This document shows, in pieces, positions 2,644 through 43,310 of a stretch of 64,000 bases of DNA. The DNA is from a virus (Duplodnaviria; Caudoviricetes). A model generated the notes under the pieces. The model was not told the DNA's origin and did not search any database. It worked only from the letters and a program-made list of their open reading frames with translations. Numbering within the stretch: position 1 is the first letter of the stretch; each line of letters begins with the position of its first letter. The stretch lies in the IMG/VR virus record IMGVR_UViG_3300035182_001152. One strand, written 5' to 3'. Both the position numbers and the translations under genes were made by a program.

Positions 2644-3648
2644 TTATTGCTTCAGAGCACCCCACACGTCATCCCACGTCCCCTGCAGAGCGCCCTTGGA
2701 GTAACTCGACTCCGTTTGCTCAAAGAAGTTGGTGTGTGACGGCAGAGCAAGCATTTCGTCGACCCAGGGCAGGGGGTTCTTCTTTTGCTTGAAGATGCCC
2801 TTGAGACCCATGCCAATCAATCGGCGGTCTGCAATGTATCGAATGTACGCATGCATGTCTTCCCTGGACAACTGCTGCTTGAATTCTGATGGATCCAGTT
2901 GCTTGTATGCAAGAGTGATGAACGCATCTTCGAGTTCAACCATCTTCTCAGCGATACCGTACAGTTCTGCCTTCAGTTCATTGGTCCAAACGTCCTTGTT
3001 TTCCTTGACAAATTCACGGAACAAGTACGTCATGCCTTCACAGTGAGTCGTCTCGTCAATGATTGACCACGTCACGATCTTTGTCGTGCCAGGCATCAGG
3101 TTATTGCGACCAAAATTCAGCAGCATCACAAATGAGCTGAACAGCTGCATCCCTTCCGTGAACGCAGAGATGGCGCACATTTGTTGAATCACCTTCGTCG
3201 CATCACCCGATTCAGCGATCTTCAGGATGAACTCGTGCTTGTCAGCCATCTCCTTGTATTTCATGAACTCGGTGTACGTAGTGTCTGGGAAGCCCAGTGT
3301 TTCGAGCAGGTGGCTGTACGCAGCGATGTGAACAGCCTCACGTGCTGCGAAGCCAAGTAACATCATCCGAACTTCAGGCTGTGGGAATGCTGGCAGGTAG
3401 TTGTTAACATAGCCAGCTGCAACATCAACGTCTCCTTGTGTGAACAGACGCAAAATCTGCGTTAGGAAGTCCTTCTGTCCAGCACTCAAACGCTTCTTGA
3501 AGTCGTACACATCTTGTTGCATTGGCACCACAGAGTGCAGCCAGTGAATCTGCTCGTGCTTAAGCCACAGCTCGTAGCACTTTGGATAGACGAACGGCTT
3601 AAATGTGCTTCGTACGTCTGTCAATTTAGTCTTCGTCTTTGTCATCAT
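2644..3648 (-). CDS. nrdB: ribonucleotide reductase class Ia beta subunit
   Basis: FTQGDVDVA, EAVHIAAYS, FTEGMQLFSSF, DETTHCEG diiron ligands; FFE near C-terminus; start set at ATG 3648 behind AAGGA. Confidence 0.95.
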   Translation of the reverse strand: MMTKTKTKLTDVRSTFKPFVYPKCYELWLKHEQIHWLHSVVPMQQDVYDFKKRLSAGQKDFLTQILRLFTQGDVDVAAGYVNNYLPAFPQPEVRMMLLGFAAREAVHIAAYSHLLETLGFPDTTYTEFMKYKEMADKHEFILKIAESGDATKVIQQMCAISAFTEGMQLFSSFVMLLNFGRNNLMPGTTKIVTWSIIDETTHCEGMTYLFREFVKENKDVWTNELKAELYGIAEKMVELEDAFITLAYKQLDPSEFKQQLSREDMHAYIRYIADRRLIGMGLKGIFKQKKNPLPWVDEMLALPSHTNFFEQTESSYSKGALQGTWDDVWGALKQ

Positions 3649-27372: not shown

Positions 27373-27407
27373 AAAATAGCTCCTTTGATCTATTTATGAC
27401 ACAGGAG
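27370..27407 (-). promoter_or_regulatory. late promoter plus RBS-sequestering structure
   Basis: TATTTA 27391-27396; mRNA CAUAAAUAG/CUAUUUUAUG stem and CUCCU/AGGAG pairing. Confidence 0.7.
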
Positions 27408-37698: not shown

Positions 37699-37719
37699 GT
37701 GATCCATGATAATTATTTA
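37688..37719 (-). promoter_or_regulatory. late promoter overlapping a 12-bp AUG-sequestering hairpin
   Basis: ATAATTATCATG (37688-37699) / CATGATAATTAT (37705-37716); TATTTA at 37714-37719. Confidence 0.8.
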
Positions 37720-37751
37720 TGAAGAGGTATGCTCGGTTTAACCCGGGTTGT

Positions 37752-40700
37752 TTACGCGTTCAGACGAAGGTTCGTTGGCGTGTACCCGGTAACGATCTGG
37801 ATGTTGTCAACGGTGATATCTGGATACAACACCTCATCTTCGCGCGCTTGCACTTGGAACAGGTCACCAAACTGATCTTGCGCTAGCGTTGGGACCAACA
37901 CAACAGAGCTGATTTCTGACGGCAGTGCGGCGTGAATAGCGGCTGCTAGTTCCGTGAAGTAGAACGTTTCACCAAACTCCCACAGTATAATGTTGAAGAA
38001 ATTGCGAATTGTAGTGACGATCGTTGTTTTGATTTGGTTGTCCGTTAGGTTACGATCTGACGAACGGACAACCAAGAACGAAGCCTGCAACGCAGCAGAT
38101 GCCTTTGAACCAAACAGCAGCTTAATCTTGCCAGGGTGCAAAACGATCGTATCTGAGATCATCTTGTTGTCCAGCAGATAGTTGTACGACGTGCGTAGAT
38201 CTAGCGGCGTTGGCAGCGTTGGCTGTGTTGCCAGAGGATCCTCAAGCCAGCGCTTCAGTGCCATGTAGTAACCCTTTGTAATCACGAACGAGTCGATGAT
38301 GTTTGAAGGTGACGGATCAACTAGATGGTAACGCGGTGAGCGGTGGAACCAAGCAAAGTTCAAATCTGAACGACCCTCCCAACGCTGCCACAATCCCGTG
38401 CCGTTGATGACGTCAGTTGCATATGACGTGATCGACGTTGCTGTCGTGGGTGCTGGCGTCCACGGATCAACTGTAGTTGATCGCGTGAAGTACACGTAAT
38501 CTTTGATGCGAATTGTGATCTGTGATCCTACTGGAGCTGTGCCGTAGATTGAATTGTACAGGATCACTTGGTTTGACGCGTATGAGCCAGACGATGCTGA
38601 CACACCCCACATTACACCTTCACCAGCAAGCGGAGTGCCGTTGTATTCAATCGTCACATCAGGGGTGGTGTCAGGCGCAGCAGGATCGATGTAGTAATAC
38701 ACTGGTAGCGTGATTGCCATACCCCCAAACAGCGGAATTCCTGTTGGCACTGTGTAGTTATACTTTGGCATCATGATGTCTGCCACACCACGGTGGTTGA
38801 CGATGTCGTCAATGATTAGGTCATCTGGTACACCATCGTTGTTGGAGTCTTGGGACATCACTGACAAGCGATTAACGTCTGGGAGACCTGAATCAGGACC
38901 GGAATCGACTGTCTCCTGACCAAGCACGTTGTACACCCAGTTTTGAGATAGGATGCCCGTGCGGTTGTAGTTGACGTTTGCCTGCAAAATCACAACGCTG
39001 TCAACGTCGGATTGCAATGTATCGTACTCAATCACAGATGAAGCCTGGTTCGTATTCCAGAAAGACGTAGTTTGACTCTGGAATACCAAGCGGCGCGCAG
39101 TACGCGTGACATTGTAGCGCGTTTCAAAGATTGACGCCTGTATTACAGAGAACAGAGGTGTAGTGATGTAGTTTGCAGGCCAACCTGGCAGTGTTGTTGG
39201 GGAGTCAGAACGCTTAACGGCGTACCATTCATACGTTGTCAGGTTGTAGTACATGTCCATCTGTGTTGGCACAGGTGGAGGAGTCAGTGCGTTCGTAATG
39301 CGAACGATTTCATCGGTGTTGAACACACGACGGAATGACTGCAACGGTACGCCGGCGCTGACAATCTGGACAAAGATGTCTGTTGACGATAGCAGTGGCT
39401 CAATGTAAGTGCTAATTAACACACTAATGTCCACTACTGGCGTCGTCCCAGTTTCGGGGGTATCTTCAAAATACAGCAGCCCGTCGTCACCGTAAATCTT
39501 GACGTTCTCGTATGTGCCTGAGGCATCATGCCAAGGAATGTACTTTGAATCACCGGCAAACGTGCGGTTGATTGAGCGCAGCTTCAAGATCGAAGGATCC
39601 TGCAGCATGAACACGTTATAGTCTTGACCGTTAACCATACGGTCTTGTGAATAGTACACGGCGGGAGCAGTTACACGAACGTGCTCGATATCTTCAGCTG
39701 ATGAGCCGTTCTGCAACGAGCTGATCAAGCTGAATGTGAATGTGAACGTCTGTGTACGGCCAAATGTATCAACGTACGTGAACGATGCGGGAGTGTTGAC
39801 GACTGATGCTTGCGGCACAACAATGTCAGCATTCAGCGATGTACGAACCCAGATGTCAAACGTACCAAGAGGGATGTCAGCAAATTCACCGTCACCGAAG
39901 ATCAGGCGAACGGTGTTGTTGTCACGCGTTTCTATTTCGTACTTGTTGCGCTTGGGGTTGGTGTTGAAGATAACGTTCTGTGCGTGTGCCAGGTCAACCT
40001 GAACCCACTCGCCAGACTTACCGTCTGTCGTTGGCGTTAGGTATGGCAGAACCGTCTTAACGTCTGTTGTCTCGCCCGTGACGGGATCAACATTGTTGAC
40101 CCACACGTCCGTGTCGTTGACATTCTGTGCGGAGACGTTGTACGTTTGGTTCGGGGTAATACCATCAAACGTTGTACGGAAACGCTGCAAAGTACCTTGT
40201 TTGGTATAGCAAAAGAAGCCTGTTGTGTCGGATGAGTCACCCAGGCCGTCTTGACCGTACAGGAGCGTAAAGTTGGCGTTGTTGTACGGACGACGCTCGA
40301 CAATACCCTGATCTGCGTCGTATGCGACGGGGACCAACTCCATTGGTGCTGACCGACCGTTGACAGCAGCGGTGTACGAGAATACGCCCGTTGCCAGCGG
40401 TGACAGGTTCCACGAATACATTTCGAACAGCACGTCTTGAATTTGGAATCGGTCCGTTGGACCAACAGAGCCAAATTGTTGCTCTAGGACGCGGTTCATC
40501 ACGAGAATGAACTGATCTTTCCAGCTAGAGTTGCCAAGATCGTTCCAACGAATCGTCTTGTTTGCAAGATCGTTGCCGTTTGCATCGACTACAGATTCAG
40601 TTGTCGATACGGACATTAGTTTAACCAGGCCACGAGCTGGCAGAGAGCGGGCAGCTGTGTAGGAAACCAACTTAGCTAAGCGGAGAATCGAGTCTTTACG

Positions 40701-40961
40701 CTGCGCCGCCGAGATGAAGTTCTCGTGTGCGTTGATATCCATCCGATAAGACAGTACTTCAGCGATGTACGCGAACACTTCAACGATTGCGATGAATTCA
40801 CTGGATTCAATGAAGTCGTTGAAAGTCTCCGGGAAGTACAGCTTAATGTAGTCGAGGATACTCTGTTTGACCGTGTTGTAGTCAAATGCTGCGAAGTTGA
40901 TGTTTTGGAAGCTGTCGTACACCCTCTCCCACGACTCAGCGCGAGATACTAATCTTGACAT
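37752..40961 (-). CDS. baseplate wedge subunit (T4 gp6-like, extended)
   Basis: FAAFDYNTVKQ, FNDFIESSE, ENFISAAQRKDSILRLAKLVSY, LIFGDGEFA, QDRMVNGQDY. Confidence 0.9.
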   Translation of the reverse strand: MSRLVSRAESWERVYDSFQNINFAAFDYNTVKQSILDYIKLYFPETFNDFIESSEFIAIVEVFAYIAEVLSYRMDINAHENFISAAQRKDSILRLAKLVSYTAARSLPARGLVKLMSVSTTESVVDANGNDLANKTIRWNDLGNSSWKDQFILVMNRVLEQQFGSVGPTDRFQIQDVLFEMYSWNLSPLATGVFSYTAAVNGRSAPMELVPVAYDADQGIVERRPYNNANFTLLYGQDGLGDSSDTTGFFCYTKQGTLQRFRTTFDGITPNQTYNVSAQNVNDTDVWVNNVDPVTGETTDVKTVLPYLTPTTDGKSGEWVQVDLAHAQNVIFNTNPKRNKYEIETRDNNTVRLIFGDGEFADIPLGTFDIWVRTSLNADIVVPQASVVNTPASFTYVDTFGRTQTFTFTFSLISSLQNGSSAEDIEHVRVTAPAVYYSQDRMVNGQDYNVFMLQDPSILKLRSINRTFAGDSKYIPWHDASGTYENVKIYGDDGLLYFEDTPETGTTPVVDISVLISTYIEPLLSSTDIFVQIVSAGVPLQSFRRVFNTDEIVRITNALTPPPVPTQMDMYYNLTTYEWYAVKRSDSPTTLPGWPANYITTPLFSVIQASIFETRYNVTRTARRLVFQSQTTSFWNTNQASSVIEYDTLQSDVDSVVILQANVNYNRTGILSQNWVYNVLGQETVDSGPDSGLPDVNRLSVMSQDSNNDGVPDDLIIDDIVNHRGVADIMMPKYNYTVPTGIPLFGGMAITLPVYYYIDPAAPDTTPDVTIEYNGTPLAGEGVMWGVSASSGSYASNQVILYNSIYGTAPVGSQITIRIKDYVYFTRSTTVDPWTPAPTTATSITSYATDVINGTGLWQRWEGRSDLNFAWFHRSPRYHLVDPSPSNIIDSFVITKGYYMALKRWLEDPLATQPTLPTPLDLRTSYNYLLDNKMISDTIVLHPGKIKLLFGSKASAALQASFLVVRSSDRNLTDNQIKTTIVTTIRNFFNIILWEFGETFYFTELAAAIHAALPSEISSVVLVPTLAQDQFGDLFQVQAREDEVLYPDITVDNIQIVTGYTPTNLRLNA

Positions 40962-41268
40962 GATGTGATCCTTTATGAAATGGTTTTACATAACTTAGGG
41001 TATATGTAAAACACTCTGTGTGTCCGTTAAATTGGATAGACGGACTGTGCCGACGCGCCGCTGTTGCTGTTCCACACTCGGGGCATCCGGCAGCTTTTTT
41101 AGATGCATGCACAGATGGGAGTTGGTCAAAGAGTCCTTGTTCGTTGCAAATAATTGTAACAGGATTGTGCACACCCGTATAGTGGGCAAGAGAGTAGTCG
41201 TACTTATCACCATGCCATTTTTTAGCATTGATGATGAACGATTCCGCCCCCGCTGTTAACCCTGACAT
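40936..41268 (-). pseudogene. internally deleted DUF723/Hef-like homing endonuclease remnant
   Basis: One HGDKYDYS...IC...GCPECG repeat joined directly to FNGHTECF; the nuclease core present in the 26644 paralog is missing. Confidence 0.72.
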
Positions 41269-41339
41269 GCTGTATTCCTTGATGTTTCGTACGTACGCGC
41301 GCATTCCCACGATTCAGCACGGGAAATTAGTCGACTCAT
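41256..41339 (-). pseudogene. orphaned duplicate of the gp6 N-terminus
   Basis: MSRLISRAESWE versus gp6 MSRLVSRAESWE; TAATG-coupled to the gp25 stop; terminates after 27 codons. Confidence 0.85.
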
Positions 41340-41716
41340 TATGCGCTCTCAAATGTGATGTTAATGTCCAGGTTACCTGTGAGGTTCAATTCAACGTACA
41401 GTAGAAGTGCACTCGCTACAACGCTGTTCGTATCGTACGAAGGCGAAATCGTCAGGTTGAGTAGTTCTACACGTGGGTCGAACGCGAATACAGCTCGCAG
41501 GTCCTCTTCAAGCACGTCAAGCGTGATTGAGTCGAGAGGTTCGAACACTAGATCAGGAATTCGTGTCCCAAAAGTAGGCATCATCACACGTTCACCGCGA
41601 CGGGTGAAGATGTGATTCAGCAGATCGAGCTTAACCAACTCTGCGTCTGCAATTGAGAATGCTTTGTTCGTTTGGTATTCGTACGATGAATACCCACGAT
41701 ACAGCCCTACGGTCAT
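41339..41716 (-). CDS. baseplate wedge protein (T4 gp25-like)
   Basis: DLLNHIFTRRGERVMMPTFGTRIPDLVFEP, FDPRV; TATTTA at 41741-41746. Confidence 0.93.
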   Translation of the reverse strand: MTVGLYRGYSSYEYQTNKAFSIADAELVKLDLLNHIFTRRGERVMMPTFGTRIPDLVFEPLDSITLDVLEEDLRAVFAFDPRVELLNLTISPSYDTNSVVASALLLYVELNLTGNLDINITFESA

Positions 41717-41762
41717 GGTGTGTTCCTATGCTTGTTTCGATATTTATCTAAGGGGCAGCTGG

Positions 41763-43310
41763 TTATCTGCGCCAGTACATGCCGCGATCGATGTTGCGGC
41801 CGCGTTCAACCTTACCAACGGAAGGGTCGTCATATCCAAATTCAGGTGTGTGGCTGCTATCGTCCGCTGTCATCGTGCGAGCCCACGGCTCATGATCCGG
41901 TACGCGGTTGGTCCACAGTGCGGCTTGCTCTGCAGCATCGTCTGCAGAACCTGCGCTATCAGCTGGCGATGCTGAGGGACCGTTCAGGTCAATTGAACCA
42001 CCGCTAAGCACCACAGCGCTACCGGATACATTTGTGGAGCCACCACCAGAAATCAACATGTCGGCACCAGATTTCAGGTTCATAGCAGCGCCAGACTCAA
42101 CATTGACGGCGGCGCCCGCCTTAGCGTTTGTTGCGGCACCTGACTCTAGGTTGAGAACGGACCCAGCCTTGACGTTAACGTTCGTATCGCCCTGTAAGAA
42201 CATCGATTGTGCCGCATGCTGGCGAATATTTTGAGCCGATTTCAAGCTCATATCTTTGGCAGCGTCTAGCCGAATCTCATCATCTGAATGCATGTGAATG
42301 CCTTCTTTGGCATACATTCGGATCGATTTATCGGATGTCATGTTGATTTCTGACGACGATCGAATGTTGACTTTATTCGCTGAGAAGATATCGATGTTGC
42401 CATCCATATCCAGTTCGATCCAATTATTGCCCTTCGCAGTAGCAATGTAGATTCGCTCATTCGTGTCATCAAGAATGATCTGATGGCCAGATGTTGTGCG
42501 GAACCGCAGCCGACAGTTTTCCTGGCGATCATCCATCGAGAAGGCATGGAATCCTGGCGTGCTGAACGAGTACACCATAGAGTCGTAGTTACGATCAGTG
42601 TACGATGACGGAGCGTGTGGATCTGTCCGACTGACTTGATATCCTTGGGTGCTTGTCCAATCGCCGTGCTTGACATCTTTGTCATCCTGAACGCGTGAGT
42701 AAGTTTGGTTTAACTGTGATACGTCGATTCGCGATACGCTGTAATCAGCGGCGCGTGAACGGAACTCGTAATTTGCCTCACTTTTGTGTCCGAATGCTTG
42801 CTTCAGGTTATCTGCCAAAGGCTGGATAAACTTTTCTGAAGATGAATACGGACCGTACGGAGCGGGATCGTCACCGGCTTTCTCAAGCTCAGGGTGATCA
42901 TCATACATGAACCGGCCGTGCGGCATCGTATGTGGTGTGAATTGATCATAGATGCAACCAAAGTACATCCGCGTCATCGGATTACCGTCGATACACAGCA
43001 CAGCAACCTGTGATCCAACTTTTGGAATTGCCCACATTCCGTATGCAACGCCACCTTCAGTTTCCTGTATTCCAGGACCGCGAGATCCTACTTGCACCTG
43101 ACCACCAAAAGGCGACATGTAAATTGCCCACGGCAGGTCCTCAACGTTTGAACCCCACGGATCACCCCACTGTGAGCAGACGACACGGATCCGACCCATT
43201 TGTTGGGGGTCGTTCGTATCAACAACAGTACCGATTGTTACGAACGGTACTGTGCTCGGCGTTTGTGCAGCGTTCTGAAAAACTTCGTACTGCCGGGTGT
43301 ACATTGGCAT
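41763..43310 (-). CDS. baseplate central spike (gp5/VgrG-like OB-fold plus beta-helix)
   Basis: GTVVDTNDPQQMGRIRV, LPWA, WAIPKVGSQV, TTSGHQIILDD, beta-helix repeats. Confidence 0.9.
   Translation of the reverse strand: MPMYTRQYEVFQNAAQTPSTVPFVTIGTVVDTNDPQQMGRIRVVCSQWGDPWGSNVEDLPWAIYMSPFGGQVQVGSRGPGIQETEGGVAYGMWAIPKVGSQVAVLCIDGNPMTRMYFGCIYDQFTPHTMPHGRFMYDDHPELEKAGDDPAPYGPYSSSEKFIQPLADNLKQAFGHKSEANYEFRSRAADYSVSRIDVSQLNQTYSRVQDDKDVKHGDWTSTQGYQVSRTDPHAPSSYTDRNYDSMVYSFSTPGFHAFSMDDRQENCRLRFRTTSGHQIILDDTNERIYIATAKGNNWIELDMDGNIDIFSANKVNIRSSSEINMTSDKSIRMYAKEGIHMHSDDEIRLDAAKDMSLKSAQNIRQHAAQSMFLQGDTNVNVKAGSVLNLESGAATNAKAGAAVNVESGAAMNLKSGADMLISGGGSTNVSGSAVVLSGGSIDLNGPSASPADSAGSADDAAEQAALWTNRVPDHEPWARTMTADDSSHTPEFGYDDPSVGKVERGRNIDRGMYWRR

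Follow-up and report, generated by a model that had tools for sequence, protein, structure and literature searches.

Examination of the gp25-gp6 junction was carried out in the window, that is, the whole stretch of 64,000 nucleotides analysed here, which derives from an uncultured jumbo phage. A gp25-like baseplate wedge gene, a short stub homologous to the beginning of gp6, the remnant of an endonuclease gene and the functional gp6 gene follow one another at this locus, and all of them are encoded on the minus strand (Table 1). The functional gp6 is a homologue of ORF324 of Xanthomonas phage XacN1 and is presumably essential, being a conserved baseplate wedge gene. The stop codon of gp25 (TAA, 41341-41339) overlaps the ATG of the stub (41339-41337) in the arrangement TAATG. 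The stub ORF reads MSRLISRAESWECARTYETSRNTACQG and opens with MSRLISRAESWE, and 378 nt downstream of its start the live gp6 begins with MSRLVSRAESWE. Of 36 nucleotides, 11 distinguish the two starts, and only one of the 12 encoded residues is changed (Ile/Val). This coupling and this duplicate had been put forward in the original prediction, and both were confirmed by the sequence of the window and by four assemblies and four sequencing runs. The junction sequence is identical in the four independent assemblies and in contigs of the four public runs (microbial mat, sediment), and it is thus real DNA and not an assembly artefact. The five sequences of this phage show no differences across the region. 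When the first and last 14 residues of every long ORF were compared with the surrounding 5 kb (matches of at least 9 of 14 residues), the duplicated gp6 start proved to be unique in the 64-kb window.

Table 1. Features of the gp25-gp6 locus, with positions in the window
Feature	Position	Strand	Basis
Late-promoter-like motif ATAAATA upstream of gp25	41741..41747	(-)	Putative promoter, motif only
gp25-like baseplate wedge gene, 125 aa	41339..41716	(-)	Pfam PF04965, E 6e-9; PHROG baseplate wedge subunit
Dead native gp6 5' stub, 27-codon ORF, ATG in TAATG overlap	41256..41339	(-)	gp6-homologous part ~41339-41275
Ribosome-binding site AAGGAA of the relic, 6 nt before its ATG	41275..41280	(-)	Read from the sequence
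Homing-endonuclease relic ORF, 110 aa	40936..41268	(-)	Pfam DUF723; PHROG endonuclease families
Single complete DUF723/CapR-type zinc-ribbon repeat, relic residues 9-68	41065..41244	(-)	Alignments to homologues
Second zinc-ribbon repeat, first ~12 codons only, cut off (relic residues 81-92)	40993..41028	(-)	Aligns with start of repeat 2 in P0020 and in the window's own paralogue
gp6 leader of spacer/insert type, with ribosome site AAAGGA (40974-40969) 7 nt before ATG	40962..40981	(-)	Aligns with L014 spacer leader
First ~60 nt of live gp6, likely imported 'recoded' tract (Ser2 = TCA)	40902..40961	(-)	Allele comparison
Functional gp6/J-like baseplate wedge gene, 1069 aa	37752..40961	(-)	PHROG 10646 baseplate wedge subunit, E 7e-267

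The stub shares with the uninterrupted relatives both the TAATGA overlap and an AGY codon for Ser2 (AGT). It remains recognisable as gp6 as far as codon 20-22 or so, although small indels occur past codon 12 (z = 5.9 for the best local alignment, with relative L007). The original prediction that the stub degrades as soon as the match of 12 codons ends is therefore borne out by the indels only; the likeness goes on beyond them, which places the insertion point at about codon 20-22 and not at codon 12. The start of gp6 is called differently in the available annotations. In L084, L085 and L087-L089, the JGI calls put it 13 codons downstream (1056 aa), a choice that avoids an overlap with the relic ORF, and the Logan calls take the ATG itself (1069 aa). 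With the same DNA underlying both, only the annotation differs. The start should be placed at 40961, and neither the stub nor the relic ORF should be annotated as a gene.

The ORF of 110 codons between the two gp6 starts is, from its sequence, the decaying relic of an endonuclease gene. Its stop codon (TGA, 40938-40936) lies 23 nt inside gp6. The frame matches Pfam DUF723 (PF05265) with an E value of 2.6e-4 (21.3 bits against a cut-off of 20.9), and its DUF723/CapR repeat has 40-60% identity to the repeats of 109 longer proteins. In these longer homologues (250-750 aa), two to six repeats precede a nuclease domain (T5orf172/MUG113, GIY-YIG or MTES_1575), a build described for phage T5orf172 homing endonucleases (PMC10448857). 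In the relic, no nuclease family was matched beyond the repeat in Pfam or PHROGs. In addition, the CxxH of the repeat has become CxxQ by way of Gln44 (CAA at 41139-41137), and the stretch reads C-N-E-Q-G. Of 364 repeats from ~109 homologues, 358 have H here, 5 have C and 1 has D, and a Gln at such a near-invariant position means that a zinc ligand has been lost. Since this ligand of repeat 1 and the sequence beyond ~12 codons of repeat 2 are both gone, the relic can no longer home. The endonuclease remnant of the original prediction thus proved to be what it had been taken for. No relative of similar length other than the relic itself was found among 5.8 billion sequences searched. An intact, distant paralogue (242 aa, 33% identity) is present elsewhere in the window at 27372-26644. 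On an unrelated phage contig (L170:1522-5797), nrdD is called as two ORFs of 292 and 408 aa separated by a gap of 329 nt, and a DUF723 endonuclease gene of 598 aa lies directly downstream of it; the interruption of this nrdD may be an intron or of some other kind.

To place the locus among its relatives, about 150 related gp25-gp6 junctions were taken from viral and metagenome collections. A second gp6 start was present in none of the ~150, relatives without the element included. The junctions are of three kinds. In the majority, the stop and start codons overlap (TAATG or ATGA), and the closest relatives, L003-L006 with 78-83% gp25 identity, belong here; no empty-site relative above 83% gp25 identity was found. 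In the second kind, 45-80 nt separate the two genes, and this spacer contains a ribosome site and a late-promoter-like (T/C)ATAAATA. In the third kind, an insert of 0.3-2.2 kb holds a nuclease-type gene, several of them with DUF723, and is again followed by ATAAATA and a ribosome site. In XacN1, a Xanthomonas jumbo phage and the nearest named phage, the gap between gp25 and gp6 is 40 nt with nothing between. The position between the two genes is therefore polymorphic for presence and absence: most of the ~150 junctions are empty, and nuclease-type genes occur in at least 10, which makes the junction a recurrent landing site. Inserts of 0.9-2.2 kb with genes of 270-550 aa were seen in L015, L024, L032, L042, L052, L056, L076, L079, L103 and L116. 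The endonuclease-type genes examined, those of L015, L017, L024, L032, L042, L052, L056, L076 and L079, are on the opposite strand, and no donor with an endonuclease gene on the same strand at this junction was found among the relatives examined. Alignment of the related junctions was expected to bring to light uninterrupted alleles as well as intact versions of the element. Uninterrupted alleles were found, but no intact version of the relic gene was met at a gp25-gp6 junction; its best matches, with 55-60% identity over one repeat, are in unrelated contexts, one of them beside a split nrdD.

Several single observations were made at these junctions. The insert genes include several with DUF723 and weak MTES_1575 or DUF7487 matches, and one with a Mom-like match. 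The junction of L017 holds a DUF723 relic of 76 aa. In L079, a tRNA-Gly gene (anticodon TCC, 3376-3446, minus strand) stands right after the gp25 stop, beside an opposite-strand gene of 524 aa. In L154 (2857-3100), gp25 and gp6 are separated by an unrelated ORF of 77 codons (MKTEELFESEV...), each end of which forms a TAATG overlap.

The spelling of Ser2 differs between the kinds of junction. Among distinct alleles, overlapped junctions have AGY in 22 and TCN in 2, whereas spacer and insert junctions have TCN in 16 and AGY in 2. The split could reflect either a constraint of the overlap (TAATGA/ATGA) on this codon or a spread of insert-linked starts together with the inserts. The two gp6 termini that flank the endonuclease ORF fall on opposite sides of it: the unused stub is of the overlap type of the clade and the copy in use is of the insert type. 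Over its first 30 nucleotides, the live copy agrees with the insert-type relative L015 at 25 and with the spacer-type relative L014 at 24, against 17-20 for its own clade and a mean of 23.7 within that clade. Over 36 nucleotides, the stub matches the clade at 25-29 positions and the live copy at 23-25. From nucleotide 61 onward, gp6 of the window is 73.5% identical to the clade, and clade members are 75.4% identical among themselves; trees of gp25 and of three gp6 segments always placed the window with L003, L005, L006 and L007. These results indicate that the foreign tract is short, about the length of the stub. A longer co-conversion tract was looked for by sliding-window identity and segment trees; with relatives of 70-80% nucleotide identity, too distant for finer resolution, the nearest relative stayed the same past the first ~60 nt. 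The signal of the imported tract itself extends over ~60 nt and consists of small counts (~21 mismatches observed, 14 expected). Occupying the exact place at which gp6 starts in the clade, the stub would be the native start, and the live start looks foreign.

Divergence of the two starts was also compared with chance. When 11 random substitutions were placed in the 36 nt, one residue change or fewer was obtained in 0 of 200,000 simulations, and the passage from AGT to TCA at Ser2 takes three nucleotide changes. A difference of 11 of 36 nucleotides with only 1 of 12 residues altered implies that both starts diverged under selection, as working gp6 N-termini in separate genomes.

The similarity to spacer-type alleles includes the leader of the live gp6. 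A stretch of ~20-30 nt there aligns with the L014 spacer, in a local alignment with three gaps that begins about 20 nt upstream of the live ATG. The AAAGGA ribosome site, which the original prediction had assigned to the 3' end of the endonuclease, lies within this aligned leader, and it most likely came with the foreign gp6 leader and not with endonuclease coding sequence. The relic frame merely runs through it. For the tail of the relic, HHVKISIS, two readings were considered, a piece of a T5orf172 domain and a deletion joint formed through microhomology at the gp6 ATG; both were given up on account of the same alignment. An L014-type contig from run X2, from the same samples, matches 40947-40967 with one mismatch. 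In three of the same samples, a contig of the empty-site L003 type is shorter by exactly 378 nt from the gp25 anchor to the gp6 anchor. Phages of the L014 type and of the empty-site L003 type are thus present in the same samples.

Transcription signals were sought in the window. The motif ATAAATA is enriched, with 15 occurrences found against 3.2 expected, and would fit the core of a T4-like late promoter; its full form, TATAAATA, has no exact match in the window. The sites include the one before gp25 (Table 1) as well as 37714-37720 and 27391-27397, all three on the minus strand, and lie just upstream of gp25 and of endonuclease genes. There is no ATAAATA between gp25 and gp6, the next on the strand (37720-37714) being downstream of gp6, and a promoter and terminator scan of the insert gave nothing above chance. 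Since the motif is absent between the two genes, gp6 is probably transcribed from the motif preceding gp25, through the stub and the relic.

The locus is probably the scar of faulty homing or recombination at a hot spot of endonuclease genes, with homology used on one side and an illegitimate joint on the other. We infer the donor, the double-strand break and the order of events as follows. The recipient ancestor would have had the overlap of gp25 stop and gp6 start (TAATG) typical of the clade. The donor would have been a co-infecting relative with a DUF723/CapR-type homing endonuclease gene between gp25 and gp6, co-oriented with gp6, and its gp6 would have had its own leader, its own ribosome site and first codons of the TCN type. 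The right side of the exchange would have been completed by homologous recombination within gp6, near codon 20. The left side would be an illegitimate joint, in which the end of the recipient, lying near codons 20-22 of the native gp6, was attached just upstream of the ribosome site of the endonuclease gene. The product would carry, in order, the native stub, the endonuclease gene, the foreign leader with the first ~20 codons, and native gp6. In such a product gp6 stays whole, and it would be translated from the imported AAAGGA on a transcript begun upstream of gp25. Given the presumed essentiality of gp6, its replacement start must have come in the same event as the insertion. As codons 1-12 of the stub are untouched, the indels after codon 12 may be scars of the joint and not slow decay. 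In the same or a later event, the endonuclease gene beyond repeat 2 would have been lost, together with the ATAAATA that other insert-type alleles keep. The break could have been made by the enzyme of the relic itself or by a related enzyme in trans, as mobE acts in trans for the defunct I-TevIII (PMC2790892). For the homing of T4, one-sided, illegitimate double-strand-break repair at microhomologies is established according to the reviewed account of that work (Parker et al. 1999, as reviewed in PMC2988022).

A dedicated mobile cassette, in which an endonuclease gene and a recoded gp6 start home together into a naive gp6 coding sequence with the stub and gp25 serving as left homology, is an unlikely alternative to faulty homing at this locus. 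In this reading the recoded copy would be immune to cleavage, its recognition site being destroyed as the original prediction proposed, and the unit would be a phage counterpart of the mitochondrial mobile ORFs. The architecture is indeed the mirror image of the gene hybrids of Allomyces and Glomus (PMC3630166), but it is confined to a single phage population and is missing from all of the ~150 relatives. The live copy does look foreign, and homing of the unit, once formed, would in principle be possible if the stub served as the left homology arm; the endonuclease, however, is dead by now, and no intact homologue is found at the junction, the closest being those of other contexts. Moreover, the first formation of such a cassette would still require the illegitimate event of faulty homing. 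Of the recoded 5' end in the original prediction, the synonymous divergence and the match to insert-type alleles hold, while the dedicated invading cassette is seen in one lineage, with a dead enzyme. A broader version, namely that phage homing endonucleases colonise essential structural genes as cassettes without intron or intein, appears improbable. We give little weight to its further part, that such cassettes are made up of a cleavage-immune, synonymously recoded start with leader and ribosome site and that the split of AGY and TCN is the footprint of their sweep.

That the 110-aa ORF is kept by selection, either as a domesticated one-repeat DNA-binding protein resembling CapR or as an open frame for coupling translation from gp25 through the stub and the relic to gp6, is quite unlikely. 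CapR is a precedent for the co-option of such domains (PMC10448857), but in the relic the near-invariant zinc ligand is gone and the second repeat is cut off. The 110 open codons and the good AAGGAA site might speak for a working gene, yet a related protein of similar length is lacking in the 5.8 billion sequences. A coupling chain is possible in that the stop of the stub is 8 nt after the ATG of the relic and the stop of the relic 23 nt after the ATG of gp6; against its need, gp6 has a ribosome site of its own. It is very improbable that the gp6 start was duplicated within one genome and then diverged, and that the endonuclease gene was inserted between the copies at a later time. Replication slippage can produce short duplications, but a dead copy would not have held 11 of 12 residues while 11 of 36 nucleotides changed, as the simulations show, the Ser2 codons are three changes apart, and the live copy resembles the alleles of other clades. 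It is scarcely credible that the first copy is joined to gp6 by a self-splicing intron or some other recoding device, for although group I introns often house endonuclease genes, no Rfam family, ribozyme core included, was detected in 40700-41800 at E values up to 1, the stub has indels after codon 12, and nothing needs joining because the second start is complete and has a ribosome site to itself.

Faulty homing as proposed here can be compared with known systems, the nearest of which are in fungal mitochondria. There, mobile endonuclease ORFs bring a foreign C-terminal piece into a gene and leave the native C-terminus unused, as in atp6 of Allomyces macrogynus and in atp6, atp9, cox2 and nad3 of Glomus (PMC3630166). 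The phage locus is alike in having an endonuclease ORF within a gene and a foreign, diverged copy of a terminus, with the native one unused and neither intron nor intein present. Unlike the mitochondrial hybrids, which are 3' or C-terminal, involve LAGLIDADG or GIY-YIG enzymes and are often fused in frame, the exchange described here concerns the 5' end and the N-terminus, comprises ~20 codons and is accompanied by a DUF723-type relic. It also differs in affecting a phage structural gene and in supplying a new leader and ribosome site. As to mobility of the hybrid unit, it was found in one lineage, with a defunct enzyme, and in none of the ~150 related junctions, and not in several lineages with an active enzyme. 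Insertion without an intron, considered unusual in the original prediction, is upheld as far as no intron model matches, but it is not a new principle, given the mitochondrial precedent.

Among phages, the intronless homing of the T4 Seg and Mob endonucleases (PMC2988022) is similar in that a free-standing gene lies between conserved genes and is polymorphic for presence and absence. Carry-over of donor flanks and illegitimate junctions with one-sided homology, known from T4 homing (PMC2988022), would be further features in common, the foreign origin of the flank being suggested in the present case by the resemblance, in small counts, of the gp6 leader and first ~60 nt to spacer- and insert-type alleles. 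Normal homing of Seg and Mob genes, in contrast, leaves no duplicate, and the enzyme here is defunct and known from sequence alone. Endonuclease genes inside phage genes have also been described, namely mobE in nrdA of Aeh1, and mobA with the gene 60 bypass element in the topoisomerase of T4 (gene 39-60) (PMC2988022). In these cases as in ours, an essential coding region has received an endonuclease gene without an intron and has remained functional. They differ in that the protein is split into two working polypeptides, whereas at the gp6 locus a duplicate takes the place of the displaced piece and the protein is kept in one piece. Phage T5orf172 homing endonucleases have repeated CapR/DUF723/DUF4397 zinc-finger domains and are found at recombination boundaries (PMC10448857). 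The relic resembles them (PMC10448857) in its type of DNA-binding repeat, its phage-borne state, its position at a boundary of differently related sequence and its deletion-prone repeats, but it lacks a nuclease domain. A keyword search of open-access text retrieved no earlier phage example in which a duplicated start accompanies an endonuclease gene, a search of this scope being weak evidence of absence.

The junction is a real and well-preserved fossil of an aberrant, endonuclease-linked exchange in an uncultured jumbo phage, and its new aspect is the 5' end of a phage structural gene. Fossils of faulty homing of this kind are rare in phages and have so far been described mainly in fungal mitochondria. 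In the proposed account, both sides of the homing accident are preserved at the locus, the gene start of the recipient and that of the donor. Endonuclease-linked exchange can thus replace both the translation signals and the first codons of a virion gene that is essential. In XacN1-like jumbo phages, the gp25-gp6 junction is marked as a recurrent landing site, and the spelling of Ser2, AGY or TCN, would serve as a sequence marker for alleles that have passed through insertion.
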